The notes beneath the pieces were generated by a model, which was given only the letters and a program-made list of their open reading frames with translations, made no database searches and was not told the origin of the DNA. Shown here piece after piece: positions 1 to 49,530 of a stretch of 64,000 bases of DNA. The translations under genes and the position numbers were made by a program. The DNA lies in assembly GCA_963674785.1 (NCBI GenBank), contig OY771555.1:576001-640000 (forward strand), in the 5' to 3' direction. The DNA is from Caldisericia bacterium (GTDB lineage: Bacteria; Caldisericota; Caldisericia; JAAYUI01). Numbering within the stretch: position 1 is the stretch's first letter; each line of letters opens with the position of its first letter.

Positions 1-1317
1 AAGCTCAGTATCTGAATATTGATCAAGGATTTTATTAAGATTTCCCCGATCAACACCATTTGTCCATCCTTCGGGAGATTCCTCTTTGACATAATCAATG
101 TACTGTTTTACAAGCTCTTCAAGATTGTTCCAGTCTCTAAACTCTGATACATTCGACGCCCTTGCATAATCACTCGTTCCCTTGTTGTGACTTTTGAGCC
201 AATTGTCATATTTATCATTTAAAAACTCATCCCAGCTATCGACACCCTCTGCAACATCTGGAGACTGAGACACAGGAATCTCTTTGTTCAACGCTTTCCA
301 GGTACCCTTGTCCTCATTGTATTCCCAGTTTTTTCTCTGGTTGGGATTTTCCTTCAACCACTGTGAGAATTTCTGTGGGTCATTTTCTGCCATACTGTAA
401 ACTGACCCCTGGGCAAGCCCAATTCCCGTGTACCACTCCTCAAGATAGCTACTGTAATCAGTGCCTCCAGCAAAAGCTGAATGCACACCACTACCCTCAT
501 TTGCTGGTTTTGATTTTGTCATGATGTCTCTGAAAAGCTTGAACTCATCAGCAAGCTTAGAGTCATCCGCCATCTTCAAAATGTTTTCGGACTCCCTATA
601 ATCGACTCCAGTGGAACTGTAAAGAGATGAGATTGACCCATCCGCTGTGGTTGGAATTTTCCTGAAAGTTTCAGAGAATCTCTCTGTAACAGATTCAATG
701 TAACTTGTCATTTGTGAGGTATCAGAGATGTCAAACGCTGATACCATCATATTTGATATCTTTGTGAGTTTTTCAGATAATACATCTTCAGCAGATACCA
801 ATCCCGATGCAAGCAATGTTACAAGTCTTTTTGTCCAGAGCTGTGGGTCTTCTTTTGATAGTGGTCCCAATCTTGCAGGTGAGTGAAGCTCAAAATATCC
901 TGCCAGAATATCTGAAATCCTGTAAGCAGCTGACTCAATCTCACTTGAACCTTGGGTTAGTCCACTTGCAAACATCGATGCCGCTGTCACTCCCCAGTTG
1001 AACATCAAGTCGGGAAGTTCAGTCAGTGATTTGTTTATGGATGATGTGAGTGATGACCCAAAATCAGTTCCAATCTCACTTGCCATCTCTCTCATTTTCA
1101 GAGCCGAAAGCTGCAGTGATTTTGTGGTTTCATCAAGTTTTGTTTTGAGCTTTGTTGCTCCGTTTTCAGCAATCTTCCAGGAGGAAACAAGAGTCTTTAT
1201 TGCGGAAGAATTCTTTTCAATTCCAGCTGATAATTCAGCTACTCCGCTTTCTACCTCTGAAATAATCGCTGTTGCGTTATCTTTTGCTTCGATTTCTATT
1301 GATAGTTTTTCTGTCAA
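1..1317 (-). CDS. Tape measure-like protein (3' end runs off window)
   Basis: Not in the ORF track. I translated an open frame from TTG at 1317 (RBS AGGAGG) to base 1. N-terminus MTEKLSIEIEAKDNATAII and motif FELHSPARLGPLS resemble siphophage tape measure proteins. It lies downstream of the tail chaperone. Confidence 0.75.
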   Translation of the reverse strand, partial: MTEKLSIEIEAKDNATAIISEVESGVAELSAGIEKNSSAIKTLVSSWKIAENGATKLKTKLDETTKSLQLSALKMREMASEIGTDFGSSLTSSINKSLTELPDLMFNWGVTAASMFASGLTQGSSEIESAAYRISDILAGYFELHSPARLGPLSKEDPQLWTKRLVTLLASGLVSAEDVLSEKLTKISNMMVSAFDISDTSQMTSYIESVTERFSETFRKIPTTADGSISSLYSSTGVDYRESENILKMADDSKLADEFKLFRDIMTKSKPANEGSGVHSAFAGGTDYSSYLEEWYTGIGLAQGSVYSMAENDPQKFSQWLKENPNQRKNWEYNEDKGTWKALNKEIPVSQSPDVAEGVDSWDEFLNDKYDNWLKSHNKGTSDYARASNVSEFRDWNNLEELVKQYIDYVKEESPEGWTNGVDRGNLNKILDQYSDTEL

Positions 1318-1401
1318 TTTTTCCTCCTGTATTCAATTACGTAAATTCCTTTTTCAAGGGAGTGACCACCAGTGGTATAGGCGCATCCTATCATTTCTTC
1401 A

Positions 1402-1712
1402 TCATTCCCTCGCAGGCGGGAATAAAGGGGATGAAAAAATACATCCTTTTTGTTTGGTTAGATGATTTGACCATCATCAATAATTCCCCACAAAATATTT
1501 TGTGAATCAAAAGTAACCCTGGATGCCAGATCAAGTCTGGCATGACGAGGTATTCATCCTGAACTTGATTCAGGATCTGGCAGAAAGAATCGCATCTGAT
1601 TAGGGTTGAGATTCCCGGTCATAGCCGGGAATGACGTGAAAGTAGGCTGGAATAACGGGTTTTAAATGCCCTCCCTGAAGAGGGAGGGAGATGCCATTGA
1701 CATCCGGGAGGG
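1402..1712. repeat. Composite palindromic repeat element, copy A (CGTC/GTCAT-tagged REP-like)
   Basis: Palindromes TCATTCCC..GGGAAT (1402-1423), GATGCCAGATCAAGTCTGGCATGACG (~1522-1547), TCATCCTGAACTTGATTCAGGATC, GATTCCCGG..CCGGGAATGACG and CCCTCCC..GGGAGGG. The spacer resembles copies B, D and E. Confidence 0.8.
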
Positions 1713-1723
1713 TTTTCTCCATT

Positions 1724-1752
1724 AAAAAAGGCCTCCGGTCACCGGAGGCCTT
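1724..1752 (-). terminator. Intrinsic terminator after menA
   Basis: AGGCCTCCGG-TCA-CCGGAGGCCT hairpin followed by a T-tract on the minus strand. Confidence 0.8.
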
Positions 1753-1777
1753 GATGTTTTTAAGATATCTTGTGTGC

Positions 1778-2695
1778 TTAGATTATAAATCCAATCGCGA
1801 TAAGAAGCGACATGGCAACATGCCCCATGACTGTCATTGCACAAGCACCTGTTAGCTTTGATGGTTCTTTGTAGTTTGCCCGAAGCTCAACATTTGATTT
1901 CACAAGTATCGGCAGTGCCAAAAATCCAAGTGACGTCCAAGGTGGCATATGAGTAAAAATAAGCCCACAGCCAAGTGCAATAAATGGTGTGAGGATAAGG
2001 AAGAAGTGAAGTCTTGCTGCAACGTCTGCACCGAGTCTTACGATCAAATGACGTTTACCTGTAGCTTCATCTGCCACCCTATCTGGGAATTCATTCACAT
2101 AGAGAATAAGCCCAACAAGGATCGTCATTGGAAGTGTCACAATCACAGGAACCCACGAGAGCATCCCTGTTTGTATGTAGAATGTTGCAAGTGCGACAAG
2201 CGCTCCGCATGTGATACCGGTTATCAGTTCACCAAAACCTGTTGAACCAAGCTCAATTGGTTTTGCTGTGTAGAAGTATCCAATCAAAATTCCAAGAGCT
2301 CCGATAATAAGTGTCCATATTCCCGAAACAAGATAGAGGTATACACCAATTGCAGCAGAAATAGTAAAGAGGAAGATCGCAAATCTAAGTGCACCCTTTG
2401 GGCTGATTGCTCCACTTTGAATGAGTCTGCTTCCACCAGTAAATGGTCTTACTGGAGTTTCATTTTTTTCATCGCAACCGGAGACATGATCCCAATAATC
2501 ATTTGCAGCATTTGTTGCAAAATTTGCAGTCACAGTTGCAAGAACTGTCAAAATGGCATTTAGCCAATTGAGAGTTCCAAATACACTCCAGATCATGGCA
2601 CATGTGACGATTACAGTCATTGCTGTTGCTGTGAAAAATTCTGGTCTCATCTCAGCAATCCAAACACCAAATGGTACTTTTTTCTTTTCGGTCAT
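1778..2695 (-). CDS. menA: 1,4-dihydroxy-2-naphthoate polyprenyltransferase (UbiA family)
   Basis: NDYWD..G.D, GGSR, GFGE and NEFPD..AD..TGKR.L.VRLG motifs with multiple TM helices. Start moved to ATG 2695 (RBS GAGGTG). Confidence 0.9.
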   Translation of the reverse strand: MTEKKKVPFGVWIAEMRPEFFTATAMTVIVTCAMIWSVFGTLNWLNAILTVLATVTANFATNAANDYWDHVSGCDEKNETPVRPFTGGSRLIQSGAISPKGALRFAIFLFTISAAIGVYLYLVSGIWTLIIGALGILIGYFYTAKPIELGSTGFGELITGITCGALVALATFYIQTGMLSWVPVIVTLPMTILVGLILYVNEFPDRVADEATGKRHLIVRLGADVAARLHFFLILTPFIALGCGLIFTHMPPWTSLGFLALPILVKSNVELRANYKEPSKLTGACAMTVMGHVAMSLLIAIGFII

Positions 2696-2758
2696 ACTAC
2701 TTTCACCTCGAAGGTTATTTTCAGTTACACATGATAAAAACAACTTCATTAAAAGGAA

Positions 2759-2995
2759 TCAAGATACCCTATGGGAGTTTCCACTCATCTTTTTGACTTG
2801 CAAAAGTTTCTGTTTTTTTCTGACATCAGACACAACTTCTGAAACCTTCACGAGCAGATAATCTTGAACCAGAAGTCCTCCAGAGTTTGTCCACAGACCA
2901 AGTTTGTTTACACTTTCAATCCACGATAAAACAATTTGAAATTTACGAGGCACGCTTTGAGATATTCCAAAGAGTGCCTCCTCGATTAGTTTTTT
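2759..2995 (-). CDS. Tail assembly chaperone -1 frameshift extension (gpT-like part of a gpGT fusion)
   Basis: The -1 frame is open from slippery A AAA AAC (2989-2995) through LIEEALFGISQSVPRKFQIV to the stop at 2759. Confidence 0.75.
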   Translation of the reverse strand, partial: KKLIEEALFGISQSVPRKFQIVLSWIESVNKLGLWTNSGGLLVQDYLLVKVSEVVSDVRKKQKLLQVKKMSGNSHRVS

Positions 2996-3321
2996 TCCGA
3001 ATTTGTGAAGCTATGAAACTCCATTACCTCGGCCAATAACAAATTGAAATATAGAGCATCAAGTCCGGCAAGAGCTTCCTTTGATACCGACATTTTTTCA
3101 CCACCCACAGTCAAGCTGTGTGTAGCAAGAGTGACCATCTCAAGGTTTGCATCGTTACCCGACTTAAAACTCTCTGATGAGTTTTCATCACCCTCAATCA
3201 AAATCTCCTGGATACGCCTGAAGTCTCCCATGGAGACCCCATGAATTTCAGCTTTATCACCCTTACAACATCTTGAATCAAGGGCGTGAAAATCAATCTT
3301 TTTTGATCTGATGTAACTCAT
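2986..3321 (-). CDS. Tail assembly chaperone (gpG-like)
   Basis: 111-aa acidic ORF directly after the tail tube gene, ending in a slippery heptamer. Confidence 0.75.
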   Translation of the reverse strand: MSYIRSKKIDFHALDSRCCKGDKAEIHGVSMGDFRRIQEILIEGDENSSESFKSGNDANLEMVTLATHSLTVGGEKMSVSKEALAGLDALYFNLLLAEVMEFHSFTNSEKN

Positions 3322-4554
3322 CTAGTAGCTCCCATTTACGAGTTCTACTTTGAGTGCAAAACCTTCCTCATCATCATAAACAGCCATTGCATTCCATGAT
3401 TGAGCAATTCTTCTGCCTATTTCTACTGGCACTGAACATTTTGTCATGTATACATTAGGCATAATAAGTTTTAATGAGTAATTATTCAATTCAGAATTAC
3501 CAATTGTCTCTCCAGTAGTTGTGATTGTGGCTGCAAATGGGGTTGTTGTCTGTTTGACATCATATTCAGAACCGCTTGCTCCAAGGAATCTCTGAAGGTC
3601 TGTGTCTGAATCAAAGATAGCCTCAGCTGAAAAATTCGCAGAAACTCCACCTGGGCTTCCCTTTGTGGTAAAGATTCCTGATTCGAGAGTTCGGTCTGCT
3701 CCCTCAAGACCATTTGAGATGTCGATTTTGAGAGACTTTACGATTCCAGTTTTGTTTGTGCTATCAAACTCAACTACGGTGTCTCTTGTGAAAAGAGGCT
3801 CAAGGTCTGTGTAGCTTGGAGTGGAATTTGTATTGTGTATGCTCATTTTTGAACCGATGAAACTTGTTGTGGTCATGATGGGTTCCATAGCCTGGTAATC
3901 AAGATTCACGGATTTTGCGGTCATTCCTGAGAATTTTGCGGTGCTACTACCTTCTGGTGTTCCAAGGTCGAGTTCCCAAGTGTAGCTTGGAAGTTCACTT
4001 GTATCGCTGAAAGTGTGTTTATAGGCAGGTGTTGTGTTTTCATCCACTGCATCACCAAGGTCATGGTCAAACAAAAGTCCATTCCCACTGCCTTCTGCTT
4101 CAATCATGAGAGTATTTGTAGAGATGTTTGTGATTTTTGCAAACTCACAGGTTGACCCTGTATCGATTGCGATATAATCACCAACCACAAGTCCTGTGGC
4201 ATCTGTTACATCAAATACTGTATCTCCTGCGATCACTGCTTCTGCAAGTGTTGTTTGCACGCCACCTGTTGGTCTCTCAGGAAGTGCCGTTGTTGTTTTT
4301 GCCCCGAACAACCCATACAGAAGTTCACAGGTTGCATCGGGGTCTGCTTCCATCTTCAGTGAACCACTCTGATTCCAACCACGCTGGACGACCTCTGATG
4401 ATTGAGCTGATCCACCGATTCTAAATCTTCTTTGCATCTCACGGCCCCAGTCCATGGAGCATGAGAGTACCTTCCAAAAATTATCAGCCGATACTTCGGT
4501 TCCGTATGTTGATTCTCTTCCGAAACCAAAATAGCTAGATTCTCCTTTTGGCAT
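3322..4554 (-). CDS. Phage tail tube protein with inserted beta domain
   Basis: N-terminal FGFGRESTYGT and central H.F....LPSYT.E motifs are typical of siphophage tail tube proteins. Gene position fits. Confidence 0.8.
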   Translation of the reverse strand: MPKGESSYFGFGRESTYGTEVSADNFWKVLSCSMDWGREMQRRFRIGGSAQSSEVVQRGWNQSGSLKMEADPDATCELLYGLFGAKTTTALPERPTGGVQTTLAEAVIAGDTVFDVTDATGLVVGDYIAIDTGSTCEFAKITNISTNTLMIEAEGSGNGLLFDHDLGDAVDENTTPAYKHTFSDTSELPSYTWELDLGTPEGSSTAKFSGMTAKSVNLDYQAMEPIMTTTSFIGSKMSIHNTNSTPSYTDLEPLFTRDTVVEFDSTNKTGIVKSLKIDISNGLEGADRTLESGIFTTKGSPGGVSANFSAEAIFDSDTDLQRFLGASGSEYDVKQTTTPFAATITTTGETIGNSELNNYSLKLIMPNVYMTKCSVPVEIGRRIAQSWNAMAVYDDEEGFALKVELVNGSY

Positions 4555-4661
4555 AATTATTTCTCCTTTAGTGATTATGAAACTTGAAAACCATCCTTAT
4601 CTCGAATGGTTTCGATTAAAACCTATATCAAATTTCCTCTTATCTCTCCTGCATTTCTCTA

Positions 4662-4870
4662 CGTCATTCCCGCGCAGGCGGGAATCTAGGGCATAAAAAA
4701 ACGCACATGTTTTTCTGGCCAGATTATTTGACCGACACAATGAATTCCTCAATAGAAAACTCATGTTTCAAATTAACCCTGGATGCCGTGTCAAGCACGG
4801 CATGACGTGGTGGGATTACAAGACGATTGTTTTCCCCACTCCTTTCTGAGGAGAGGGGTTAGGGGTGAGG
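4662..4870. repeat. Composite palindromic repeat element, copy B
   Basis: CGTCATTCCCGCGCAGGCGGGAATC, a ~95-bp spacer, GGATGCCGTGTCAAGCACGGCATGACG, then a GGAGAGGGGTTAGGGGTGAGG-type repeat. Confidence 0.85.
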
Positions 4871-4874
4871 AGTA

Positions 4875-5279
4875 CTATATCTTCACCTCAACCACGACCA
4901 TCAGTTGTGACTGTAAAATAAAGCTGTTTTCTGAAAAGATCGGGTTTCCGATAAACTCTGTGGTCACCAAAGATGATGGATTTGAGAGGAAATTTTTGTT
5001 CCTTACAACACTTTCAATCTCTGCTGTCAGCTCTGAGAGTTTCAGATAACCATCCTCTTTTCCTGTTAATCCCTGAACCATCACTGTTAAGACAAGAGGA
5101 ATGAGTATATTTTTCCCACCTGCAAATGTCTCTGGTTTTTCTGTTGTCTTTGCAAGATGCAAACAACATGCGGGATATTTTGGCACAGCTTGCTTGAGGC
5201 CAATGAATATGAGCACATCATCCAAAGCTTCAGCCAAATTTGTTTTTGCTTCAAGCAATAACTCTTTATATGGTGTCAT
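4875..5279 (-). CDS. Putative tail terminator / tail completion protein
   Basis: 134 aa with a YPACC-type motif, immediately upstream of the tail tube gene. Mainly a positional call. Confidence 0.55.
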   Translation of the reverse strand: MTPYKELLLEAKTNLAEALDDVLIFIGLKQAVPKYPACCLHLAKTTEKPETFAGGKNILIPLVLTVMVQGLTGKEDGYLKLSELTAEIESVVRNKNFLSNPSSLVTTEFIGNPIFSENSFILQSQLMVVVEVKI

Positions 5280-5655
5280 TTTCTCCCCCCATCAAAAACC
5301 TCAGTAGTATCTCCTTCACCTTATCAACCCATCCTGGAGGCATGTTCATGAATGACCTTTTTGGAATTGTTTTTGAGCCAAACTCGTGGACAGCCGCATA
5401 TGGGAGCTCAGAAAGTCCTGTGCCAATCTCTGCCCTGTTTCCAGCAATAGTAACTGAGGTTGCTGCATTTTTGAGACTACCAGATTTATGCAAGTTTTTT
5501 CCACCAGTCCATTTTGGTCTTCCTCCTGATGTGAAGTTTTGATTGATTTCACTTACCACAAACGCTGATGAATCCTTCAAAGCATCATAAGGATTTGTGA
5601 TCTTCTCCTTTAAATCCGTGAGGATTTTTGTTACAGAAAATGTTATGCCTAACAT
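5266..5655 (-). CDS. Phage virion morphogenesis (tail completion) protein
   Basis: NF.SGGRPKW, L..SG.L, YAAVHEFG and IPKRSFM motifs of the virion morphogenesis family. Confidence 0.8.
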   Translation of the reverse strand: MLGITFSVTKILTDLKEKITNPYDALKDSSAFVVSEINQNFTSGGRPKWTGGKNLHKSGSLKNAATSVTIAGNRAEIGTGLSELPYAAVHEFGSKTIPKRSFMNMPPGWVDKVKEILLRFLMGGENDTI

Positions 5656-6017
5656 ATCCAAAGCTCTCCCCATGTCTCTTTTTTTGTGAGTCCTGATTCT
5701 ATTGTTCCACCCACTATACCCTTCAGAGTTTCAAGACAGCGTTTATATTTTCTGTTTGCTGTCTCAAAAAATCCCCCGTTTTCTTCACTGTAGAGAAACT
5801 CCAGAATCAATGAGACAGCAAGTTCAGTGGAAAGTTCATTAATCAAATCGGGTACAGGTTCAGTGATTATGAATGTTTCAGATAGATTTGCATCGATTAT
5901 ACGGTCTGCTTTTGTGATGGCATGTTCAACCGAAAATTCGGTTTCGGATTGATCAGGCACAACCGACGAGTCGATTCCTTTCAATGATTTTCGTACATCA
6001 AGAATAGTTGTATACAT
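5649..6017 (-). CDS. Head-tail adaptor (Mu gp36/DUF1320-like)
   Basis: MYTT..DV, AI..AD..ID..L and P.LI..L patterns; located after the capsid gene. Confidence 0.7.
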   Translation of the reverse strand: MYTTILDVRKSLKGIDSSVVPDQSETEFSVEHAITKADRIIDANLSETFIITEPVPDLINELSTELAVSLILEFLYSEENGGFFETANRKYKRCLETLKGIVGGTIESGLTKKETWGELWIC

Positions 6018-6079
6018 TGTTACTCCTTTGTTTCTCTGCTTGAATCACATGTTTTCTTTCGACTTTCCAACGAAAGCTG

Positions 6080-6205
6080 CAATCCAGGATTATTCATGAT
6101 TCAGGCATTTCTACGGGATAATCTTTGATAAAAGAACAATAGTCTCACCAAACAAAAAGAAGACGATTTTCTTTGCCCTGGTTACCCGTTTTCACGGGAA
6201 GACGT
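6080..6205. repeat. Degenerate composite repeat, copy C (inverted orientation)
   Basis: ATCCAGGATTA...GCCCTGG..CCCG..CGGGA.GACG matches the layout of copy E. Confidence 0.5.
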
Positions 6206-6248
6206 AGTAGGGAATATGAGAGTTAGCATTAATTAACGCTGAATTCCT

Positions 6249-6407
6249 CTACTTCTTCCTCTTCTTTTTGAAGATTTTGAAATCAGGATTTCTTTTCAGA
6301 TATTCAATTTCATCTGCAGAATTTGTTGAAAACGGAATCCCATTTTCAGCTCTTCTCCACCTTGTTACAACTGATTTTTTACTGCCAGAAAGTACATATC
6401 TCGGCAT
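6249..6407 (-). CDS. Small basic protein downstream of capsid (52 aa)
   Basis: Below the ORF-track cutoff. MPRYVLSGSKKSVVTRWRRAENGIPFSTNSADEIEYLKRNPDFKIFKKKRKK starts 2 bp after the capsid stop. Confidence 0.6.
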   Translation of the reverse strand: MPRYVLSGSKKSVVTRWRRAENGIPFSTNSADEIEYLKRNPDFKIFKKKRKK

Positions 6408-6409
6408 GA

Positions 6410-7585
6410 CTACTTGACCTTCAAGCTATCAAGCACAACAACAGCATCTGGGTTTTCAAGTGCACAATCACATCTGAGAGTAACAACAAAGTATGTAACA
6501 CCTTCTGTCGCACGGCGTTCGGTTTCAATGTTGATGTCTTGCTGGATTCCAAGGATGAGGTTATTGTAGTCACAAAGCATGGAGAATGTTCCATCAAGTG
6601 TGACTTCAACAACTGCTTCACTTGAGTCGTGATCATATTCAAGTGCAGTTTTTAGTGTGAGGTCATTACTTGATTTTGAATCAATCTCTCTTACCTCACG
6701 TTTTGCACCAGACCCAATTGTGATTTTGTCACCTGCTGTGAAGTTTGTGCCATCGGCGACAGTGATTACTGTATCAGTTGCACTTGCCGAAGAGCCAAGG
6801 GTTGATGTTGCACCAGAGGCAACCGCAACTGGAAGGTCGTTTGGTAGAAGCGCACATGGAGCAAGCGGAATCCTTCCAAATGAAAGTAGTGAACTTCCTG
6901 TGATTGCACTATCTCCAAGTGGTGTTGTTCTTGTGCCAATTACCTCTACAAAATCCTGATAAAGATCATCAGAAAGGATGAATCTGAGATTTTCACGATT
7001 TCCGCGATATTTGCTTGCAAGTGTTTTGATTGCTCTTGAAAGCTTTTCTTCATCGATGTTTCTATCATCAAATGATGTGCAATCGACAACGTGACCATTT
7101 GAAATGGCATCAGTATACCAGCCATCAATCTGCTCCCAGATATGGTTTTTTGTTTCATCACCGGTGTCTTCGCCCATGAGGTAGGCATACTCGAGCTGAT
7201 TACCAATCTGGTTTGCGACCATCCTCATGAGATGATCTGCAAATGCCTCTCCCTCAATGTTGTCCATCATCGCATCATCTGCAATTGGCACAACAGCCTT
7301 CATTGTTTTTGAGGTGAGTGTAATCTGGTCTGTTGTCACACTAACAGAGTTGTCCTGAGTGGAACCATATGTTCCGGGTCTCAAAACCTCTTCACCGATG
7401 CCGAGCCTTACAAGCTTTTTGGTATTGCTCCTCATCTTTTCAATTCTTGCGTTGTCTTTGAGGAATGATGCATCGATGATGTAATCGATGAATCTATCTG
7501 CATCCTCTGTTGAAAGCCCTATTCGAGTTGCAAAAGTGCTTGATGTTATTGCTGATTTTGAAAGTAATTCTTCGTTTGTTATCAT
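6410..7585 (-). CDS. Major capsid protein (HK97 fold, PBSX XkdG-like) with inserted beta domain
   Basis: L..E.ADRFID and DNIEGE.F motifs, E.AYL.G, and C-terminal LILGIQ.DI..E..R...T.R.D..LE. Start moved to ATG 7585 (RBS GGGAG). Confidence 0.9.
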   Translation of the reverse strand: MITNEELLSKSAITSSTFATRIGLSTEDADRFIDYIIDASFLKDNARIEKMRSNTKKLVRLGIGEEVLRPGTYGSTQDNSVSVTTDQITLTSKTMKAVVPIADDAMMDNIEGEAFADHLMRMVANQIGNQLEYAYLMGEDTGDETKNHIWEQIDGWYTDAISNGHVVDCTSFDDRNIDEEKLSRAIKTLASKYRGNRENLRFILSDDLYQDFVEVIGTRTTPLGDSAITGSSLLSFGRIPLAPCALLPNDLPVAVASGATSTLGSSASATDTVITVADGTNFTAGDKITIGSGAKREVREIDSKSSNDLTLKTALEYDHDSSEAVVEVTLDGTFSMLCDYNNLILGIQQDINIETERRATEGVTYFVVTLRCDCALENPDAVVVLDSLKVK

Positions 7586-7605
7586 ATTTTTTCTCCCAAT
7601 TATTT

Positions 7606-8334
7606 TTATGAGATGAGTCTCTGAATTGATTCCCATTTCATGGTTTTCTTGCCCCCAGCCTGACCTTCGACTGATTTTTTGGCTGTCAGTTTTGATTCAA
7701 TCCCTGCTAACCTTTCTTTCAATGATTCAAAGTTATCATTGAATTTCTCAAAAATCTCGAGAAGGCTTTCAATTGCTCCCTCATTTTTTTTGACTTTTTC
7801 TGTAAGCTCCAGTAAAAGCTCCTCAGGAAGCTTATCCTTCTCTTTTTCTTCTTCTGGTTTCATGACTTTTCCTAACCATTTTTCGAACAATTCACTTTCC
7901 TCCTTTTTTGTATTTTCTACCCAAATAAATTCAGCTTCGTTGTTTGCGGGTTGGTCAACAACAGAGATTTCTGCAATCGTCATTTTTGTGACAACATTCG
8001 CCATCCTGCCATTTACAAATCTGCGGGTTCTGTCATGCACAATTCCACCGATTGAAAATGCTCTGTAATGACGATTTCTAATCATTTCAAGACAGTTTTT
8101 ATCGGTGATTTCGGCACCCACAAGAAGTCCTCGTCCTGGAATTACAAACAGATACTTTGCTATTCCGACGGTTTTTTGGTGATGCATCTCACGGATATTT
8201 CGCCATTTTTTGTAATCACCGATTGCACGACTTACTGCTACTTCAGAGATGATGTCGCCCTCTTTATCGAGTGCATCTGTTGTTGCAAAACCCCAAACAA
8301 GACTACTTTTTACATCTGTTTTTTTGACTTCAAT
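7606..8334 (-). CDS. Prohead protease/scaffold (XkdF/HK97-like); start codon ambiguous
   Basis: The frame extends upstream of the track start: IEVKKTD..LVWGFA..D.EGDII..IREMH, then AFSIGG and EISVVDQPAN, with a coiled-coil C-terminus. No in-frame ATG/GTG/TTG lies upstream of the conserved N-terminus. Confidence 0.8.
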   Translation of the reverse strand: MEVKKTDVKSSLVWGFATTDALDKEGDIISEVAVSRAIGDYKKWRNIREMHHQKTVGIAKYLFVIPGRGLLVGAEITDKNCLEMIRNRHYRAFSIGGIVHDRTRRFVNGRMANVVTKMTIAEISVVDQPANNEAEFIWVENTKKEESELFEKWLGKVMKPEEEKEKDKLPEELLLELTEKVKKNEGAIESLLEIFEKFNDNFESLKERLAGIESKLTAKKSVEGQAGGKKTMKWESIQRLIS

Positions 8335-8420
8335 ATTTACCTCCCAGTTTTTTTAATATTGTCATTTACTACAATTTTTCGCCACTCCCAGTCTCTCTTT
8401 GCTTTTCCAGTTGCCCTGCA

Positions 8421-8669
8421 GTCACCCCGGGCGAAGACCCGGGGTCTATAGCATAAAAAGGCGTGCTCTTTTTTATCAGGTAAAATTGCCCATCCAATAT
8501 CAAGAATTATAAAAATAGAGAATCCATGCATCAAAAGTAACGCTAGATGCCCGATCTGTCATCCCGCACTTGATGCGGGACGGGCATGACGGGTGGAATA
8601 GCCCGGAATGAAGAGTCTAAAAAGCCCTCCCTCATCAGGGAGGGATGGTGACGAAGTCACCAGGGAGGG
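8421..8669. repeat. Composite palindromic repeat element, copy D (with a nested palindrome)
   Basis: GTCACCCCGGGCGAAGACCCGGGGTC, spacer ending TCAAAAGTAAC, GATGCCCG[..GTCATCCCGCACTTGATGCGGGA]CGGGCATGACG, then CCCTCCC..GGGAGGG. Confidence 0.8.
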
Positions 8670-9857
8670 TTACTCCAAACCCATCCTCTTCCTGACCTCA
8701 TCAGCCGAAATAACCCCTGCATCAATCAATATCTTGTCAATCTGTGCGAGTCTGAGTTCATCCTCAACATCAAGCTCATTGAAAACAAATCTGACAGATT
8801 TTACACCCAAACCCTGATTTATGATGAGTCTTGTGATTCTTTCAGAGAGAAATCTTTGACGTGGTGAGATTATGAGATTTTTGAAGTTTGTAAGTTGTGT
8901 TTCACCTGTTCCACCACCAAGATTTCCACTCTCGATTATCCCAAGCAGGTGTGGTGGGACACCATGTGCAACAACCATCAAATCACGATTCATCATTCTA
9001 TAATCAGCAAATGATGCGTCTTTTGGACTAGCAGAAATTGGTTTCAGTTCGCCCGTTATCCCTTGAGGAAACTGCAAAACCATCGTCTTGTGTGGGTTTC
9101 CTTTGAGGTCAGACAGATATCTTGTAAGTTCCTCTTTGTCCTTTGTTGATAAGGTACCACCAGAAATCATGAGGCAATACTGCGGTGTGGCGTTGTTGTC
9201 AAAAAAATTCACATTGTAGTCACGTGCCATAAGATCACCCATCAAAGCACCAATTGCAGGAACAGAATCTGGCATCCCGTAAAATGAGGATGCGGGATTA
9301 TATTTTGCAAGGTGGATGATTTCAGACATCGGGAGATTTGTTGTCTCATCAATTTCAATTGTTTCTGCGCCAAACCTTGCGAACTCTCTTTTTTTACCAT
9401 TCCTAATCTGCAAAAATCCACCATCCCTCTTCACTCTCACTGTTTGTGCTGGGATGTGGAAAAGCCGACTTATTCTTCCAAGAGAATCACGTGTGACTTC
9501 AAGATAGCTGTTGCCAAGACATTCAAGGTCGATCATCACAGAACTTAATAGCTCAGAGAATGAAAGCTCCGGGTTACAAGAACCTAAAAATTCAGAAACC
9601 CTTTCTCTATCGATGGGATTTGGTGTAGACCCATTATCAACAAGCCTCCATCCAAGACCAACAGTGTATTGAGCCTTGATGTTTACGGCACGATAATATA
9701 TCTCACTGCTTCTGTAAAGCTCTAGAAGCCTTTCAAAATCAAGGTACTCTGGTGGGCTTATCACCCCATCAATCCCAGCGAAGGAATCTTCAATCTGTCT
9801 TGAATTATCAACCGTCAACTTGTCTATAAAATCCAGTTTTGCTGTTTTAATCATCAC
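8670..9857 (-). CDS. Phage portal protein (PBSX family)
   Basis: D.E.LGN.YLEV.R, EIIH...YNP...YG.P, N..FF.N.A.P and AHGVPP.L.GI motifs. Confidence 0.92.
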   Translation of the reverse strand: MMIKTAKLDFIDKLTVDNSRQIEDSFAGIDGVISPPEYLDFERLLELYRSSEIYYRAVNIKAQYTVGLGWRLVDNGSTPNPIDRERVSEFLGSCNPELSFSELLSSVMIDLECLGNSYLEVTRDSLGRISRLFHIPAQTVRVKRDGGFLQIRNGKKREFARFGAETIEIDETTNLPMSEIIHLAKYNPASSFYGMPDSVPAIGALMGDLMARDYNVNFFDNNATPQYCLMISGGTLSTKDKEELTRYLSDLKGNPHKTMVLQFPQGITGELKPISASPKDASFADYRMMNRDLMVVAHGVPPHLLGIIESGNLGGGTGETQLTNFKNLIISPRQRFLSERITRLIINQGLGVKSVRFVFNELDVEDELRLAQIDKILIDAGVISADEVRKRMGLE

Positions 9858-9871
9858 CTAGCCCCTTTCTC

Positions 9872-11263
9872 TTAGAAAAAATCAACCCTTGCGCATCTAT
9901 TCAAACTTGTACCAAGTCTCACAGCCATCTCGAAAGCATCAATCCTGTCATCATGACTTCCTTTTGGAAACTCCAGAAGCTCATCCCTGAATGCCTTATG
10001 ACCTTTGCCGATAAAGACTTTACCTTCCTCAAACAAAGGTTGCAAAGTCCTTATTCTTGCTTGCTTTGATACCTTAGTGTGCGAAATTGGCACAATTGGA
10101 GTTTCAATCTGTTCTCTCAGTCTTTCAATCATCACTCGCTGATAACCAACATCCTCTATTCCGAGTTTTTCCGGATTCCATTCATTTACTTTCCTGATTA
10201 TCAATTCTTGTTGAGTCAAAAATGTGAATCTGCCAGAAACCTCATCTAAAAGAAACCAGTTTCCAGCACTGTTCACACCAACCACAACAAGCGAAAAAAG
10301 GTCGGCATTTTCAGAATCAGATATTGCAAGATCGCACGCCATATAGACATTCATGTCAGCCCTTTCAGGCTGGTTCATCCAGTGTTTTATCCATTTCTCC
10401 TGAAAGATATTCCCGGTCATCCCGGCAGTATCATTCTGCTTTTCTCGGTCAAACATGAGTGATCCTGAAAGCAATCTGTCAACAAGCAACCTGTTTATGT
10501 TCCATTCTTTTCCCCAAAGGGTTTTCCATGTACCGGTTTTATCAACTGAAAGTAGCTTCCCTTCAGGTGAAAAGTGAAAGAATCTTTCTATCGGTTCGCC
10601 ATTTTCAATTGCCTTTTCGAAATTATCTGGGTAGTTGATAATCGCACGCTCAACCTGAACACTCCAAGCGGGATTACCGATAAATTCAGAGGAAACATCC
10701 TCAGGATGTTTCCTCGTGCCGAGAACAAGAAGCCTTGTTTTTGGCAATGCAAGCTGAAGTAGCGACCCTTTAAACCATTCAGAAATTTTTGCTCGAGAGG
10801 TTTTTGTGCTACTGTTCATCTCATCGATGATGTCATCACAGAGGATAAAGTCGTAGTGCATTCCAGTTATCGATCCACCAACCCCACATGCTGTAATTGA
10901 TGGCTCTTTGCATATATTTGCCAAAAGCCGCAATTCGGTTTTATTCTTTGGTTTGCCGATTTCAAATTCAGGGTAAGAAGAAAGCTTTGTCTCAATCGTG
11001 TTTTTAATCTGGGTAAGAAGTCTTGCTGCAAGTGTTTCTGTTTTTGAGACTATCAAAACCCTTGTTTCCGGATTCATCTTCAGAATCGAAATGATTCCAA
11101 GCAGTCCCCATATTGTTGTTTTACCATGTCCACGAGGGGAAAGCTGAAGCCTTCGATCCCAATTGCCATTATACGCTTCAAGCCATTTTTTGTGATGTGC
11201 TGCAAGTCGAATATCAAGAATTTCGGCAATCTCAAGTGATGTATCCAAAAGGGAGCAACCCAT
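9872..11263 (-). CDS. terL: Terminase large subunit
   Basis: Walker A PRGHGKT, Walker B FILCDD, coupling GTRKH, nuclease CDLAIS and HDDRIDA motifs are all intact. Start ATG 11263 lies downstream of the promoter. Confidence 0.92.
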   Translation of the reverse strand: MGCSLLDTSLEIAEILDIRLAAHHKKWLEAYNGNWDRRLQLSPRGHGKTTIWGLLGIISILKMNPETRVLIVSKTETLAARLLTQIKNTIETKLSSYPEFEIGKPKNKTELRLLANICKEPSITACGVGGSITGMHYDFILCDDIIDEMNSSTKTSRAKISEWFKGSLLQLALPKTRLLVLGTRKHPEDVSSEFIGNPAWSVQVERAIINYPDNFEKAIENGEPIERFFHFSPEGKLLSVDKTGTWKTLWGKEWNINRLLVDRLLSGSLMFDREKQNDTAGMTGNIFQEKWIKHWMNQPERADMNVYMACDLAISDSENADLFSLVVVGVNSAGNWFLLDEVSGRFTFLTQQELIIRKVNEWNPEKLGIEDVGYQRVMIERLREQIETPIVPISHTKVSKQARIRTLQPLFEEGKVFIGKGHKAFRDELLEFPKGSHDDRIDAFEMAVRLGTSLNRCARVDFF

Positions 11264-11305
11264 TTCTCGCCCCCTTTTCATTGATATAGTTTTTTGACAT
11301 ATCAT

Positions 11306-11333
11306 ATAGTATCTATAATATATTCACTGTCAA
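11306..11333 (-). promoter_or_regulatory. Sigma70-type promoter for the terL operon
   Basis: TTGACA-16 bp-TACTAT on the minus strand, ~45 bp upstream of terL. Confidence 0.65.
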
Positions 11334-11546
11334 ATCAAATAGTACAATTGCTATCCAAATAAGTCCCTAGATACCAGAATCAATTATTGTTATTATACAA
11401 TAATTTAGATGAGACACATGGTTTTGAAAATGGTGCAGGATGGACTCTAAAAAATGTCGTAAATACAAACAAACCCTTACCAAACATGAATTTTATAAAT
11501 CGTCGAAACAAGCAAAAATGTCGCTTTTTTCATATCTTGAAAAACA

Positions 11547-11575
11547 TTGACCAAACATGAAAAAACAAGTAACAT
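11547..11575 (+). promoter_or_regulatory. Sigma70-type promoter
   Basis: TTGACC-17 bp-TAACAT upstream of the 11600 CDS. Confidence 0.5.
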
Positions 11576-11599
11576 CATAGCCAAGGAGAATTTACCTAA

Positions 11600-14155
11600 A
11601 TGAGAAGATTTCTAATTTTATTTGTAGTTTGTTTGCTTATCGTCCCCACTGTTTTGCTTGCTGACATGAACCTTGAATTCACTGCAGTTGGTCACGGTCC
11701 TCTTAAAGGGGAGCTTGGTCTGCCAATAAAGATGTGTCCACTCCCAGATGGCAGATTTGCAGTGCTTGATGGAGCAACAAAGATGGTTTCTGTTTTTTCT
11801 GACTCTGGAGAGTTTGAAAAAAACATCAGCCTTCCAAAAACCTTCCAATATGAAGTAATCAAAAATGTTGAAAACTTCGATACAACATCACTCAACTTCT
11901 CTTTGACAAATCTCGATATGGTTTCAAATTCTCTTTCTGAAATCTTCTTTTTGACAGAAACAAACATCCTGAAACTGGGTTCTGATGGAACTGTGAAGGA
12001 CAGGATTGGAGATTTTGAAGTAAAAAGCTCTATGATCACAAAACCAGTCTCATTTGATATCGGCGATGACGGTAATTTCTATGTTCTTGATAAAAACAAC
12101 TGTGTTGTTGTGGTCGATACCAAAGGCAAACAGCTCAGGAAAATCGGTGAAATTGGCGAGGGAAAACAGAAGGTTTTAAATCCTCTGATGGTTTGGGTTG
12201 AAGACGATCTTGTAATCGTGCTTGACGACTCTGGTAAACTGACCGCAAGCCCACAAACAGACGATAATGCGATAACAGTCTGGAAACGTGATGGGACATT
12301 TGTCAGAGAGTTTGCTGCATTTTGCGATAGATTCGAACCAGAAGACCATCAGATTTTCCACAGTGTGATCGGTGAGGTATCAGGTGAAGATATTTATCTT
12401 CTTGACCTGCACGCATCACTTGGTGGAATGTACTGGACAATCAAACACTTCCAGACAAATGGTGACTATATGAAGGTCATCAAATCACCTGTTGAAGATA
12501 TGCATCCAGTCGCATCTGTAATTTTTGATATCTATGCAAATGGTGACAAACTCTTCTTCTGTTATCCATTTTTATCAAAAATAGTTTCAGAAGACGGCAA
12601 AAATGAAATCGGAAAACCAACTGAAGAAACACTTACCTCACCATATTCTGCTTGTCCAATTTCTGATTCTGAAATGATTATCATGGAAAGCAATCCTCTC
12701 AGGCTTCACAAATATGATGAGGACGGCAATCACATCAAGGTCGCCACTCTAAACACAAAAACACACGGTCTTCCCGGACTCGAATACACAGTTGGTGTTG
12801 ATATTGATTTTGACGGTGAAAACATAATTGTTGCAACAATGGACTCAATTCTCATGGTTGACCCAAAAAACCTCGAGATTGAAGACAGCATAGAGCTTTC
12901 AAGAAACATCGACAACCTTGCTCTGACAAAAGCCATGGCAGAATCAAACGGAGTTATCCATGTTCTCGATACTCTCTCACAACTAACCAGCTTTACAAAG
13001 GGATTACCAATAACATTCGATTTGAGTGAGTCACTTCCTGATCACAAATTTGTTGACATCGCAACTGATCTGAATGAAAACATTCTTGTTTTATCAACAG
13101 AAAAACCAGGCATTGGATGGTTTTCAAAATCTGGTGATTACAGTAATTTTGTGAGTCTTCCAGATGTCAAATCACCTTCATCAATCTGTGTTACAGATAA
13201 GGGTTTGATTTTTGTAACATCTCTTGAAGAAAACAAAGTATACAACGTCTCAAAAACTGGAAGTGTCGTGTGGGAGGGTGGAGTATCCGAGTTCATAAGC
13301 AAATTTGATACAGCAGAAGATTATGCAGCAACCCCTGACTACATGGTGTACCCTGTAAAGATAAGAACATTTGATAATCAGATTGCAGTACTTGATTTTG
13401 GAAACTTCAGAGCTTTGAAACTATCCGAGAAAGAAGAAGCAGCACCAGAGAAAACCCCAGCAAAACTTGTTGTTACTCAGGACTTCATAGACTTTGGTGA
13501 AGAGATTTATTACCCCGAAAAAATCAAAAAAATCATCCAGATAAAAAATACCGGTGAATTACCACTTGAAGGAACAGCAAGCACAGATTCAAAATATCTT
13601 TCCGTAAGCCCAACCGCAATTGAAAACGATACCCTCATAATCTACGTCACTTGCGAGTTTTCAATTGATGACGCCTGGAAAACAATTTCAGACCAGACTA
13701 TCAAGATTGAGACAAACGGTGGGACAGAAATTGTTAAGATAAACCCAATGAATGTTGTTGGAAAGATCGTTTATATGGATATTGGTAATCCAATCTTCAG
13801 GGTAAAAACAGTTGGTGCCGACCGCGATTTTGAAACAAATCGTGCCCCGATAATTGAAAATAGCAGAACATATGTTCCACTTCGTGCACTTGGTGATGTG
13901 CTTGGTGCAAGCGTCGACTGGGATGGTGATGACCGCCGTGTTACATTCAAGCTTGACAGTAACACTGTTGAACTCTGGATTGGGAAAAATGTCGCAAGAG
14001 TCAACGGTGCTGAGGTTGAACTGACAGACCTTCCGATTATCGTGAATGATTCAACATATGTTCCCGTAAGGTTTGTCTCAGAGCGTCTTGGTGCGGGTGT
14101 TTCATGGATTGCCGCAACCAGGACGGTTGAGATTAAGTATCCGGTTGCTGAATAA
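11600..14155 (+). CDS. Secreted NHL/beta-propeller protein with C-terminal copper amine oxidase N-terminal (stalk) domain
   Basis: Signal peptide, NHL-like repeats and C-terminal P.I.N.RTYVPLR / YVPVRFVSE.LG..V.W. Confidence 0.8.
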   Translation: MRRFLILFVVCLLIVPTVLLADMNLEFTAVGHGPLKGELGLPIKMCPLPDGRFAVLDGATKMVSVFSDSGEFEKNISLPKTFQYEVIKNVENFDTTSLNFSLTNLDMVSNSLSEIFFLTETNILKLGSDGTVKDRIGDFEVKSSMITKPVSFDIGDDGNFYVLDKNNCVVVVDTKGKQLRKIGEIGEGKQKVLNPLMVWVEDDLVIVLDDSGKLTASPQTDDNAITVWKRDGTFVREFAAFCDRFEPEDHQIFHSVIGEVSGEDIYLLDLHASLGGMYWTIKHFQTNGDYMKVIKSPVEDMHPVASVIFDIYANGDKLFFCYPFLSKIVSEDGKNEIGKPTEETLTSPYSACPISDSEMIIMESNPLRLHKYDEDGNHIKVATLNTKTHGLPGLEYTVGVDIDFDGENIIVATMDSILMVDPKNLEIEDSIELSRNIDNLALTKAMAESNGVIHVLDTLSQLTSFTKGLPITFDLSESLPDHKFVDIATDLNENILVLSTEKPGIGWFSKSGDYSNFVSLPDVKSPSSICVTDKGLIFVTSLEENKVYNVSKTGSVVWEGGVSEFISKFDTAEDYAATPDYMVYPVKIRTFDNQIAVLDFGNFRALKLSEKEEAAPEKTPAKLVVTQDFIDFGEEIYYPEKIKKIIQIKNTGELPLEGTASTDSKYLSVSPTAIENDTLIIYVTCEFSIDDAWKTISDQTIKIETNGGTEIVKINPMNVVGKIVYMDIGNPIFRVKTVGADRDFETNRAPIIENSRTYVPLRALGDVLGASVDWDGDDRRVTFKLDSNTVELWIGKNVARVNGAEVELTDLPIIVNDSTYVPVRFVSERLGAGVSWIAATRTVEIKYPVAE

Positions 14156-14163
14156 TTAGTTAA

Positions 14164-14380
14164 CCCTCCCTGATGGGGAGGGCATTTAAACCGGTTATTC
14201 TTGGCTACTTCCACGTCATTCCCGTCCCTCCGTCATTCCGGGCTTGACCCGGAATCCAGGATTACTTTTGATACATGAATTATTTATTCAGCGATTCTTG
14301 TTGTTTGAAAAATCATTTCACCCAATAAAACAAATACGCTTTTTAATGCCCTAGACCCAAGGTCTTCGCCCGGGGTGACG
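14164..14380. repeat. Composite palindromic repeat element, copy E (inverted, outside the phage module)
   Basis: Reverse complement of the A/D layout: CCCTCCC..GGGAGGG-CATTTAAA, CGTCATTCCGGGCTTGACCCGGAATCCAGG-TTACTTTTGA, spacer, GACCC..CTTCGCCCGGGGTGACG. Confidence 0.8.
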
Positions 14381-14623
14381 GAAAAGGGTGCGAAGGTATC
14401 ACCCACTAACACCTCTGGAATGACAAAGAAAGAACAAGGATATTGTGAAGAGATTCTCAATCCTTCATTCCAAACTCCCTCTCCATTCATTTTGATAGGC
14501 TCCTGAGCCTGGTTTATCCAGAGCTTGTCGAAAGGCAAAGCATGATAGGAATTTAGATGTTTGTTTTGTTTATATGCAATATTATTTTTGCTAAAATCCC
14601 CTTAGTTGGTTTGGAGGAGATTC

Positions 14624-26676: not shown

Positions 26677-26938
26677 GTACCCTTTCTCCTTTCGAGGTGC
26701 ATTTGGTCTCGAAGAACACATATCAAAACGAATGGTTCTACGACCCACCAAACGCTAGTATCTAGCAATGTCACCAGACCAAACCTCTTCATCGCTTGTT
26801 CCTGCTAAACGAATCTCTCAAATTATAAATAGCCCAAAATTACGGCTCAGACTTGATTCGACTCAAGTCATCCGAAACAGGGCAGAATAAAACTGTGCGC
26901 GTAAAAGAACCACGCTACACGCAACCACACTCCCTTTA

Positions 26939-36171: not shown

Positions 36172-37206
36172 ATGAAGCAATTCGTATTTCAGAAATCAAG
36201 GGTGAAGGAACTCCTTTCAAACTTGATATCCAATTATCCAAATGTTTATGCGCCCGTTGCGCGTGGTAACAGCCATGTTTTCGACAGGATAACTGATCCG
36301 GCAAAAGCTGAATTCAACTATGTCAGATCGATTCTTCCTCCAAAAAAATACCTGATGCCACAGCATGAGAGTCTTGTTTCCTTCAAGCTTGGGGAGAACA
36401 CTGAATTCTCCGAAGTTATTGAAGCCCCAAAACAGGTTATCGTGGGTGTAAGACCGAGTGACGTCAGAGCAATCAAATTGCTCGACGACGTGATGATTTC
36501 GAATAATTGCGACAAAAACTACAAAGCACGTCGCGATAACACAATCATCATCGGTATCGACGGTATTCCTGATGAATACAGCTATGAAGACTCCGTGATG
36601 GATCTTCATGTCACGGAAGGGTTTGACCTTTTTCTGACAGACCTTGGAAATGTTGTTCTTGTTGATGTAGCAACGGATGAGGGAATGAACATTCTCAAAT
36701 CAATTGAACACGAAGAAGCAACAAGTGAACACATTGCAATGAGAGTACAGACCATCAAGTCCCAAAAAGAGATGTTCAAAGCAAAATTTGACATCCCAGT
36801 AAAATTGATTCCACTCACACTTGAGGGAAAATGGGATCATCCAGTTTGGGAAAAAATGGGCAAAAAATGTCTCTCATGTGGACAGTGTATTCTTGTCTGC
36901 CCAACATGTTACTGCTTCAACGTTACAGATGACATGGCTCTTTCAATGAAGGAAGGCACAAGAACCCGTCATTGGGACGGTTGTCAGCTTTCAGAATTCA
37001 CAATGGTAGGTCATGGTGAAAACTTCAGAGACGACGCAGGCGCGAGAGTAAGACATCGTTTCTACAGAAAATTCAAATATCACATCGACTCATTCTCAGA
37101 GATATTCTGCACAGGTTGTGGTCGTTGCTGGCAGACATGTCCAGCAGACATCAATCTTGTAGAGATTGCAAACATACTAGCAAACGAGGAGGTGGAGTGT
37201 GCCTAA
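36172..37206 (+). CDS. hydB: Group 3b [NiFe] sulfhydrogenase beta (Fe-S) subunit
   Basis: CLSCGQC..VCPTCYCF, R.WDGC and CTGCGRC...CP motifs. Confidence 0.88.
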   Translation: MKQFVFQKSRVKELLSNLISNYPNVYAPVARGNSHVFDRITDPAKAEFNYVRSILPPKKYLMPQHESLVSFKLGENTEFSEVIEAPKQVIVGVRPSDVRAIKLLDDVMISNNCDKNYKARRDNTIIIGIDGIPDEYSYEDSVMDLHVTEGFDLFLTDLGNVVLVDVATDEGMNILKSIEHEEATSEHIAMRVQTIKSQKEMFKAKFDIPVKLIPLTLEGKWDHPVWEKMGKKCLSCGQCILVCPTCYCFNVTDDMALSMKEGTRTRHWDGCQLSEFTMVGHGENFRDDAGARVRHRFYRKFKYHIDSFSEIFCTGCGRCWQTCPADINLVEIANILANEEVECA

Positions 37207-44127: not shown

Positions 44128-44151
44128 ATGGGAAGAAATAGGAGTGTAAAA

Positions 44152-49487: not shown

Positions 49488-49530
49488 AACAAGAAAATTG
49501 AAACTGCTTTCAGTAATCAGGAGAGGAATA

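Follow-up and report, generated by a model that had tools for sequence, protein, structure and literature searches.

A vertically inherited head-tail gene cluster in a Caldisericia family as a candidate domesticated phage module

We analyzed a 64,000-nucleotide stretch of DNA (G000:C1:576001-640000, the window) from G000, a 2.23-Mb single-contig metagenome-assembled genome of a Caldisericia bacterium, in which phage-type head and tail genes run leftward from window position 11305. The cluster measures about 19.5 kb (genome 567763-587305), that is, window 1-11305 plus 8.2 kb to the left. Comparison across the family supports the conclusion that this module was present in the family ancestor and was inherited vertically, beside the same surface-protein gene and under purifying selection. 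From its gene content and history we lean slightly toward reading it as a particle-producing, host-kept module of the domesticated defective-prophage kind, to which gene transfer agents (GTAs) and PBSX belong. The stronger reading, that it is a true GTA that evolved independently in Caldisericota and was kept since the family arose, is possible and is proposed only tentatively.

Results

The family consists of G000 and 10 other genomes in three genera (g1, g2, and g3). G000, G001 (96% complete), G002 (a closed genome), and G003 belong to g1, and g2 has four genomes that include G004 and G006. The outgroup set was 82 genomes from six other families of the same phylum. Contigs from other runs confirmed the sequence over window positions 1-8664 and 8643-14259.

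Read on the minus strand from 11305 downward, the gene order is terL, portal, protease, capsid, gp36-like gene, Neck1-like gene, a 134-aa gene, tail tube, tail assembly chaperone, menA, and tape measure. Family matches were obtained for 10 cluster genes (Pfam, PHROG, and NCBIfam), and TerL, portal, S78 protease, HK97 capsid, tube, G/GT chaperone, and tape measure stand in the order of an HK97-like siphovirus morphogenesis module. Every gene that the initial annotation had listed between TerL and the tape measure was present on the minus strand at its predicted position.

TerL, the large terminase (9872-11305), matched Terminase_6C (E=1.1e-11) and phrog_38 (E=3e-86), and its start is likely the third ATG, at 11263. 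Its Walker A, Walker B, and acidic nuclease motifs were invariant in all eight genomes aligned, in agreement with the earlier claim of intact catalytic motifs. In G007 the terL frame is open for 502 codons, but no ATG, GTG, or TTG is reached until 93 codons into it, close to the Walker A motif (L026/L027). The portal gene (8670-9857) matched PF04860 (E=4.8e-39) and phrog_12 (E=1.6e-60). The prohead serine protease with its scaffold-like C-terminal part (7606-8334) scored 21.8 bits against a cut-off of 21 for Peptidase_S78 and matched phrog_80 (E=1.9e-8); the open reading frame (ORF) as called, 7606-8187, misses the N-terminus, and the frame with homology to the relatives stays open as far as an ATT at 8334 that follows GGGAGG. 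The REMH and FSIGG motifs of the protease were kept in eight genomes. Protease and scaffold-like part form one fused gene in g1 and g3. In all four g2 genomes (L029/L033/L035/L038), a conserved stop followed by a GTG splits the protease domain from the scaffold-like part. The HK97-fold major capsid gene (6410-7636) matched PF05065 (E=2e-8), TIGR01554, and phrog_1623 (E=9e-66); its start is most likely at 7585, giving 391 aa, with M18 invariant in the alignment, and capsid identity across the family is 68-84%. Between capsid and tube lie a Mu gp36-like head-tail connector of 122 aa (5649-6017; PF07030 E=5.4e-6, homologues in 8 of 8 relatives), a Neck1/tail-completion-like protein of 135 aa (5266-5673; phrog_26 E=1.8e-9), and a conserved protein of 134 aa (4875-5279) with homologues in 8 of 8 relatives and without a Pfam or PHROG match, which by its position may be the tail terminator.

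The tail tube gene (3322-4554, 410 aa) matched PF18906 (Phage_tube_2; E=8.4e-15) and has an inserted Ig-like domain. An internal domain of about 80 residues is common to the capsid, the tube, and a 451-aa protein encoded farther left (L009:15156-16511); it corresponds to capsid profile positions of approximately 250-340, and the capsid profile also matched the internal domain of the tube. In the 451-aa protein it was modeled with a predicted local distance difference test (pLDDT) score near 90, and it is probably an Ig-like decoration domain. The tail assembly chaperone is encoded as G (2986-3321) with a -1 extension T open to 2759, and homologues of both occur in relatives. G ends GAA-AAA-AAC-TAA, the slip site A_AAA_AAC lies at 2995-2989, and the -1 frame is open for 75 further codons. 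The heptamer stands directly before the chaperone stop in all nine genomes with the gene, which bears out the frameshifted chaperone of the initial annotation. The tape measure (871 aa) extends from window 1317 to genome 574702, with its N-terminal 439 aa at window 1-1317. Its own match was weak (phrog_2276 E=1.7e-5); it follows the G/GT chaperone and is 43% identical over 900 aa to its counterpart in G002, and the G004 and G007 orthologues match several tape-measure PHROGs. No tail sheath family was matched among 20 cluster proteins in Pfam and PHROG scans, and the tail does not classify as the contractile type of PBSX.

TerL was found in 7 of the 10 other family genomes; it is 59% identical to the copies of its own genus and 47-49% identical to those of the two remaining genera. 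The capsid profile recovered one full-length copy in each of 8 of these 10 genomes and none in the 82 outgroup genomes. The absence in G005 was not counted as a loss, as its contig starts 108 bases from the NHL-repeat gene, where terL would follow. The G005 orthologue of this neighboring gene (L181, G005:C18:109-2685) has one in-frame TGA. In a collection of 5.8 billion proteins, 14 clusters were 69-98% identical to the capsid and the named ones were all Caldisericia; the next full-length match was at most 42% identical. The best isolate phages reached at most 30% identity for the capsid and 27% for TerL. IMG/VR held a single contig (L072) with the whole cluster and nothing else on it, and otherwise distant capsid or portal relatives without this TerL.

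Gene order within the cluster was identical in all relatives. The NHL-repeat gene was back-to-back with terL in all seven relatives with an assembled terL, and a DUF4388 gene came next in six of them (the contig of G009 ends there). A tree of nine concatenated cluster proteins recovered the three genera with 100% support. The capsid and tube tree had the topology (G002,(G000,G003)), the same as the rpoB and gyrB tree, which in addition places G001 as sister to G000 and G003. Pairwise identities of cluster proteins drop in step with those of RpoB and GyrB, and the right flank of G000 (PIN-TRAM, ispD, and a giant gene) recurs in G001. Two comparisons that had been proposed at the outset, of synteny and of phylogeny, therefore came out in favor of long residence: the cluster and its NHL flank are conserved in close and distant family members, and the cluster tree follows the host tree.

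The DUF4388 orthologue of G000 lies 350 kb away, beside a split NHL paralogue, and G000 was therefore rearranged at a spacer carrying a dispersed repeat. At this second site (L070:6789-8396, G000 234789-236396), a gene with NHL and Cu_amine_oxidN1 domains is split into ORFs of 258 and 276 aa. It looks like a broken paralogue of the terL neighbor, left at the ancestral flank after the rearrangement. The surrounding region (G000 230.8-237.1 kb) was considered as an empty site and rejected, being a rearranged copy of the ancestral flank with DUF4388 and the split NHL paralogue.

Selection was estimated from the ratio of nonsynonymous to synonymous divergence (dN/dS). The dS values were unsaturated in g2 only; in g1 and g3 they were saturated for cluster and host genes alike. 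Between G004 and G006, all 14 cluster ORF pairs had dN/dS of 0.020-0.105 at dS of 0.24-0.70, and eight pairs of flanking host genes had 0.038-0.155 at dS of 0.21-0.50; the other two g2 comparisons agreed. Chaperone G gave 0.07-0.11, the scaffold-like part 0.045-0.14, and the 134/135-aa gene 0.018-0.055, so that g2 cluster genes span 0.02-0.14, well below the threshold of 1 set in the initial annotation, with dS like that of flanking host genes. One g2 ORF with dN/dS above 1 (G004 joined coordinates 37048-37518) was rejected because it overlaps, in the wrong frame, the genuine 134/135-aa gene just named. The genes for head, portal, and TerL (0.035-0.06) are constrained as strongly as the tail genes, and because of this a DNA-filled particle, not just a tail, appears to be what is maintained. 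In alignments across the genomes, every core gene kept one reading frame free of internal stops, with the exceptions of a TGA in the 168-aa gene of G002 and the protease/scaffold stop of g2.

Past the tape measure, the cluster continues with proteins of 572, 168, and 451 aa and then of 96, 243, and 234 aa. The 168-aa protein had a weak tail-fiber-collar match, and sequence-profile searches of the PDB with the 451-, 243-, and 234-aa proteins returned nothing significant. AlphaFold models of the 572-aa and 451-aa proteins were poor (mean pLDDT 47 and 56). Fold matches of the former were baseplate hub, Mu gp44, and VgrG-like chains at template modeling (TM) scores of 0.1-0.2, and the C-terminus of the latter matched carbohydrate-binding modules with target TM up to 0.77. 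They point to a baseplate hub and to a tip domain that binds glycans, respectively, but are leads only because the models are of low confidence.

Next, in g1 only, come proteins of 228 and 93 aa with one hydrophobic segment each, one of 181 aa, and one of 110 aa with two hydrophobic segments. The 181-aa protein corresponds to an endolysin of 208-211 aa in G003 and G004, which combines Amidase_2 (E=3.3e-15 in G003, 2.7e-18 in G004; PHROG endolysin E=5e-15) with a partial C-terminal Cu_amine_oxidN1 domain. Small proteins with two hydrophobic segments occur in both g1 and g2, and g2 has a 96-aa ORF with two such segments between portal and protease (dN/dS ~0.1). Cu_amine_oxidN1 also marks many surface proteins of these genomes. 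Because it is found in these, in the terL neighbor, and in the endolysin C-terminus, it looks like a general wall-anchoring module of the lineage. Three tandem genes at window 44128-52197 (plus strand), for proteins of 878-908 aa, each have this domain near residues 130-260.

Farther left are a Fic-domain gene, a UDP-glucose dehydrogenase gene, and genes for SH3-domain surface proteins. No integrase, tRNA, or replication gene was found left of the cluster, and no tRNA gene lies within 20 kb to the left or 21 kb to the right. G000 has one tyrosine recombinase (PF00589), 1.3 Mb from the cluster, and no match to serine recombinases (PF00239) in the genome. A look beyond the left edge, where an integrase, att sites, or replication genes would have spoken for an ordinary prophage, thus showed hub-like, fiber-like, and lysis-type genes and then host genes; neither an adjacent recombinase nor a tRNA-type att site marks the cluster as an intact temperate prophage. 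The sequences that flank the cluster in G002, G007, and G004 correspond to host genes at other places in the G000 chromosome.

The initial annotation had also placed menA inside the operon. This gene (1778-2749, 1,4-dihydroxy-2-naphthoate polyprenyltransferase, with seven hydrophobic segments) does lie there and scored above the curated equivalog cut-off of TIGR00751 (111.3 bits against 102.15), with other MenA equivalog models below their own cut-offs. G000 has no other UbiA-family gene (PF01040 matched once genome-wide). The gene stands between chaperone and tape measure in G000, G002, and G003, and the best UbiA-family gene of g2 and g3 sits on other contigs. Judged by these positions, the host's only menA appears to have been captured inside the tail operon in one genus, and its shared position dates the residence of the cluster to before the split of that genus.

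Upstream of terL, on its strand, is the promoter-like sequence TTGACA-N16-TACTAT (11306-11333) that the initial annotation had reported. The pattern TTGAC[AT]-N15-19-TA..[AT]T, chosen after seeing the sequences, occurs upstream of terL in eight of eight genomes compared with 34 of 2000 shuffles; promoter-like sites in the region as a whole were not above chance (36 vs. 28.8 +/- 5.9 in shuffles). The presence of the site in all eight genomes points to transcription by the main sigma factor of the host.

Four spacers of 320-482 bp separate cluster genes in G000, and G002 has no such gaps. As first noted from the window alone, all four carry copies of a host-type dispersed repeat. The spacer at 1318-1777 has repeat at approximately 1426-1553 and 1626-1688, 28 other genomic matches, and a two-way terminator-like hairpin at 1728-1752. 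That at 4555-4874 has a copy at 4685-4817 and 27 other matches, and that at 6018-6409 has weaker copies and five other matches. The fourth, 8188-8669 (8335-8669 after the extended protease), has repeat at 8421-8644, 27 other matches, and a terminator-like hairpin at 8644-8625. The repeat is intergenic, 100-250 bp long, and 70-90% alike among copies at about 40 loci genome-wide, with a further copy at window 14156-14605. It is concentrated at 300-1100 kb, with 34 of 40 merged loci at 500-1100 kb and 14 at 500-600 kb. Short-read contigs break at its copies, and a comparison with Rfam gave no match for the family in the window.

The divergent neighbor of terL (11600-14155, plus strand) encodes a secreted, host surface-type protein of 851 aa with NHL repeats and Cu_amine_oxidN1 (PF07833 E=4.9e-34). 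To its right are a 443-aa gene, ispD, a PIN-TRAM gene, a 2977-aa gene, and then housekeeping genes. The 2977-aa ORF (window 17818-26751, minus strand) is 72% identical to a 2974-aa ORF in G001. On the left, the Fic/DOC protein (396 aa, L009:10131-11321, minus strand; PF02661 E=1.2e-17, phrog_5978 E=3e-59) is encoded between the cluster and the UDP-glucose dehydrogenase gene, and other ORFs, of 259, 176, and 128 aa, occupy its position in G003. mnmG (gidA) is at window 32877-34745 (plus strand), and in G000, G002, and G007 a distance of 11-56 kb separates gyrB (G000 520285-522162) from the distal cluster end. Because of the nearness of gyrB in these three genomes and the presence of mnmG in the window, the cluster may lie in the origin-proximal region.

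Discussion

The cluster shares with GTAs a structural gene set without integration, replication, or lysogeny genes (neither an integrase nor a repressor is attached), and vertical inheritance under purifying selection (with dS saturated outside g2). If it works as we propose, host RNA polymerase would transcribe it from the consensus-like promoter upstream of terL, and a fraction of cells would build siphovirus-like particles with DNA inside. As a specificity subunit would be lacking, headful packaging would load the particles with chromosomal DNA; they would be released through holin and amidase lysis and would bind neighboring cells via the carbohydrate-binding-like tip domain.

The packaging step depends on the small terminase. 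None was recognized in G000 with PF03592, PF05119, PF16677, or PF10668, the four models used for the genome-wide search suggested at the outset; these proteins are very diverse and may escape recognition. The 294-bp spacer between terL and the NHL-repeat gene holds only a 57-aa ORF on the opposite strand, with remote families possible. The upstream DUF4388 gene, oriented like terL, was a candidate for a small terminase that had moved from its usual place, and was rejected, as it has a PATAN-type domain and no PHROG match. IMG/VR contigs that share capsid or portal lack a shared TerL and the TerL of isolate phages is at most 27% identical, so no small-terminase query could be transferred from them. 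If the small terminase is truly absent, packaging would therefore not be sequence-specific.

Several observations weigh against the favored reading of a host-kept, particle-producing module. The missing small terminase is one. Cluster composition is another: its GC content of 41.3%, compared with a genome value of 39.1%, falls in the 96th percentile of 114 windows and its tetranucleotide distance in the 94th, which puts the cluster at the edge of the host range. No RNA runs containing the locus were found. Because dS is saturated outside g2, selection there is read from intact frames alone. In g2 itself, no homologue of the Neck1-like gene was found in the four genomes, which thus lack a selected gene of this type; an 87-aa ORF there has dN/dS near 1. 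Further points come from decay. In G000, the endolysin homologue has lost its zinc and catalytic positions and part of its domain, the true N-terminus of the protease has no ATG, GTG, or TTG, and terminator-like hairpins follow the portal gene and menA. The endolysin of G002 and G007 is reduced to its C-terminal domain, and in G002 a TGA interrupts the frame of the 168-aa tail gene. In G003 the genes from protease to menA and the small distal genes remain; the stretch from the tape measure to the 234-aa gene is replaced by an IS3-family transposase, and searches of G003 recovered neither terL nor portal. In G001 no trace of the cluster genes was found, which indicates that the module is dispensable; menA and the NHL gene are 1.1 kb apart there, with a 187-aa ORF, all within 5 kb.

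The best surviving alternative, which we consider rather unlikely, is that the cluster is a relic in decay: the remnant of an ancestral prophage, maybe working in g2, that yields no releasable particles in G000 or its genus. Such a remnant would persist because the host's only menA lies inside it and because deletions are slow to arise. The degenerate amidase of G000 and G002, the non-canonical protease start, the G002 stop, the IS3-linked deletion in G003, and the complete loss in G001 with menA kept all fit this explanation, as do the four repeat insertions, two with terminator-like hairpins, and the standing of menA as the only UbiA-family gene in G000. However, none of the 17 core structural frames of G000 is shortened relative to G002, the G000 branch is not accelerated relative to G002 or G003, and the g1 comparisons that could be computed gave dN/dS of 0.06-0.34, though with saturated dS. 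No insertion or deletion was found in the 5' region of the protease gene in contigs of the likely source sample or of a related strain, ~95% identical, from another study, and ATT start codons occur in bacteria. The terL of G007, the protease ATT of G000, and an ATT that may serve as a restart beyond the G002 TGA hint that non-canonical start codons are frequent in this lineage.

Taken together, the G000 copy is structurally complete, with release and expression functions that look impaired. The initial annotation had proposed a GTA-like system with long residence and retained function. Residence and selection are supported, whereas particle production and gene transfer stay a proposal, which for G000 is weakened by the dead endolysin, the interrupted operon, and the protease start.

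A killer particle is a quite unlikely alternative. Here the module would make a PBSX-like, bacteriocin-type weapon against related cells, with DNA packaging incidental. A structural-only module under host control with lysis genes would look the same in this case as under the favored explanation, and the tip proteins are the most diverged of the cluster (30-58% between genera, compared with 68-84% for the capsid), which fits diversifying target recognition. In contrast, the constraint on head, portal, and TerL would be needless for a pure tail weapon, and the tail is non-contractile, with no sheath family matched in the cluster genes. A live mobile element, that is, a temperate phage or satellite that is still active and has unrecognized or remote genes for lysogeny, replication, and the small terminase, is very improbable: several cluster and flank ORFs lack a family match, IMG/VR lists one such contig as viral, and composition is at the edge of the host range, but the cluster is single-copy, occupies a conserved locus, and equals its flanks in dS, both of its ends in the closed G002 have host genes no more than 3 kb away, no recombinase lies within 1.3 Mb, no capsid relatives fall between 69% and 42% identity, and the contigs show no excision joints (listed joints have 20-37-base sides at repeats).

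GTAs of the RcGTA type, in Alphaproteobacteria, are head-tail clusters from the terminase on, without integrase or replication genes, inherited vertically under purifying selection with some losses. The Caldisericia cluster shares the gene order from terminase to distal tail, the lack of integrase and replication genes, vertical descent across genera, purifying selection, and lineage losses; it differs in its longer tape measure (871 aa), its attached lysis genes, the lack of a recognized small terminase, and its phylum. It is not a homologue of the RcGTA family: among eight cluster proteins searched against NCBIfam, the only match to a GTA-named model was GTA_spike_fiber at E=0.0011 and 19.5 bits, compared with a cut-off of 36 bits. 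PBSX of Bacillus has a contractile tail and a recognizable small terminase. With PBSX and related defective prophages of Bacillus, our cluster shares a host-kept, non-self-propagating structural and lysis module at one locus across related species, but neither a sheath nor a small terminase was matched. If the favored reading holds, the module would work in the manner of RcGTA-type agents and PBSX.

Bobay et al. (2014) reportedly described vertically inherited defective prophages under purifying selection in enterobacteria. The Caldisericia cluster has the same signature (a conserved locus, intact frames, and dN/dS far below 1); in contrast to scattered fragments, it keeps a complete head-tail-lysis set across three genera. 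GTA clusters of protist endosymbionts are described as homologues of the alphaproteobacterial GTA (PMC9254644). Both they and the present cluster are read from conserved genes and selection in unculturable organisms; the Caldisericia lineage is independent. We found no paper on a GTA or prophage of similar kind in Caldisericota in full-text searches that covered main texts, and in the literature passages retrieved Caldisericota appear only as a list entry or an outgroup.

To our knowledge, few independently domesticated DNA-packaging particles are known (RcGTA, BaGTA, Dd1, VSH-1, VTA, and PBSX), all from cultured lineages. The Caldisericia module would add to them a deep-branching, almost uncultured phylum of anaerobic digesters and sediments. 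The position of the sole menA between chaperone and tape measure is unusual: what seems to be a housekeeping gene of the host lies within an operon for a phage tail. The family also forms a natural series of states, from complete with endolysin (g2), to structurally complete with a dead endolysin (G000, G002, and G007), to a tail deleted by an insertion sequence (G003), to loss (G001), and could thus help to explain how elements of this type persist and disappear.

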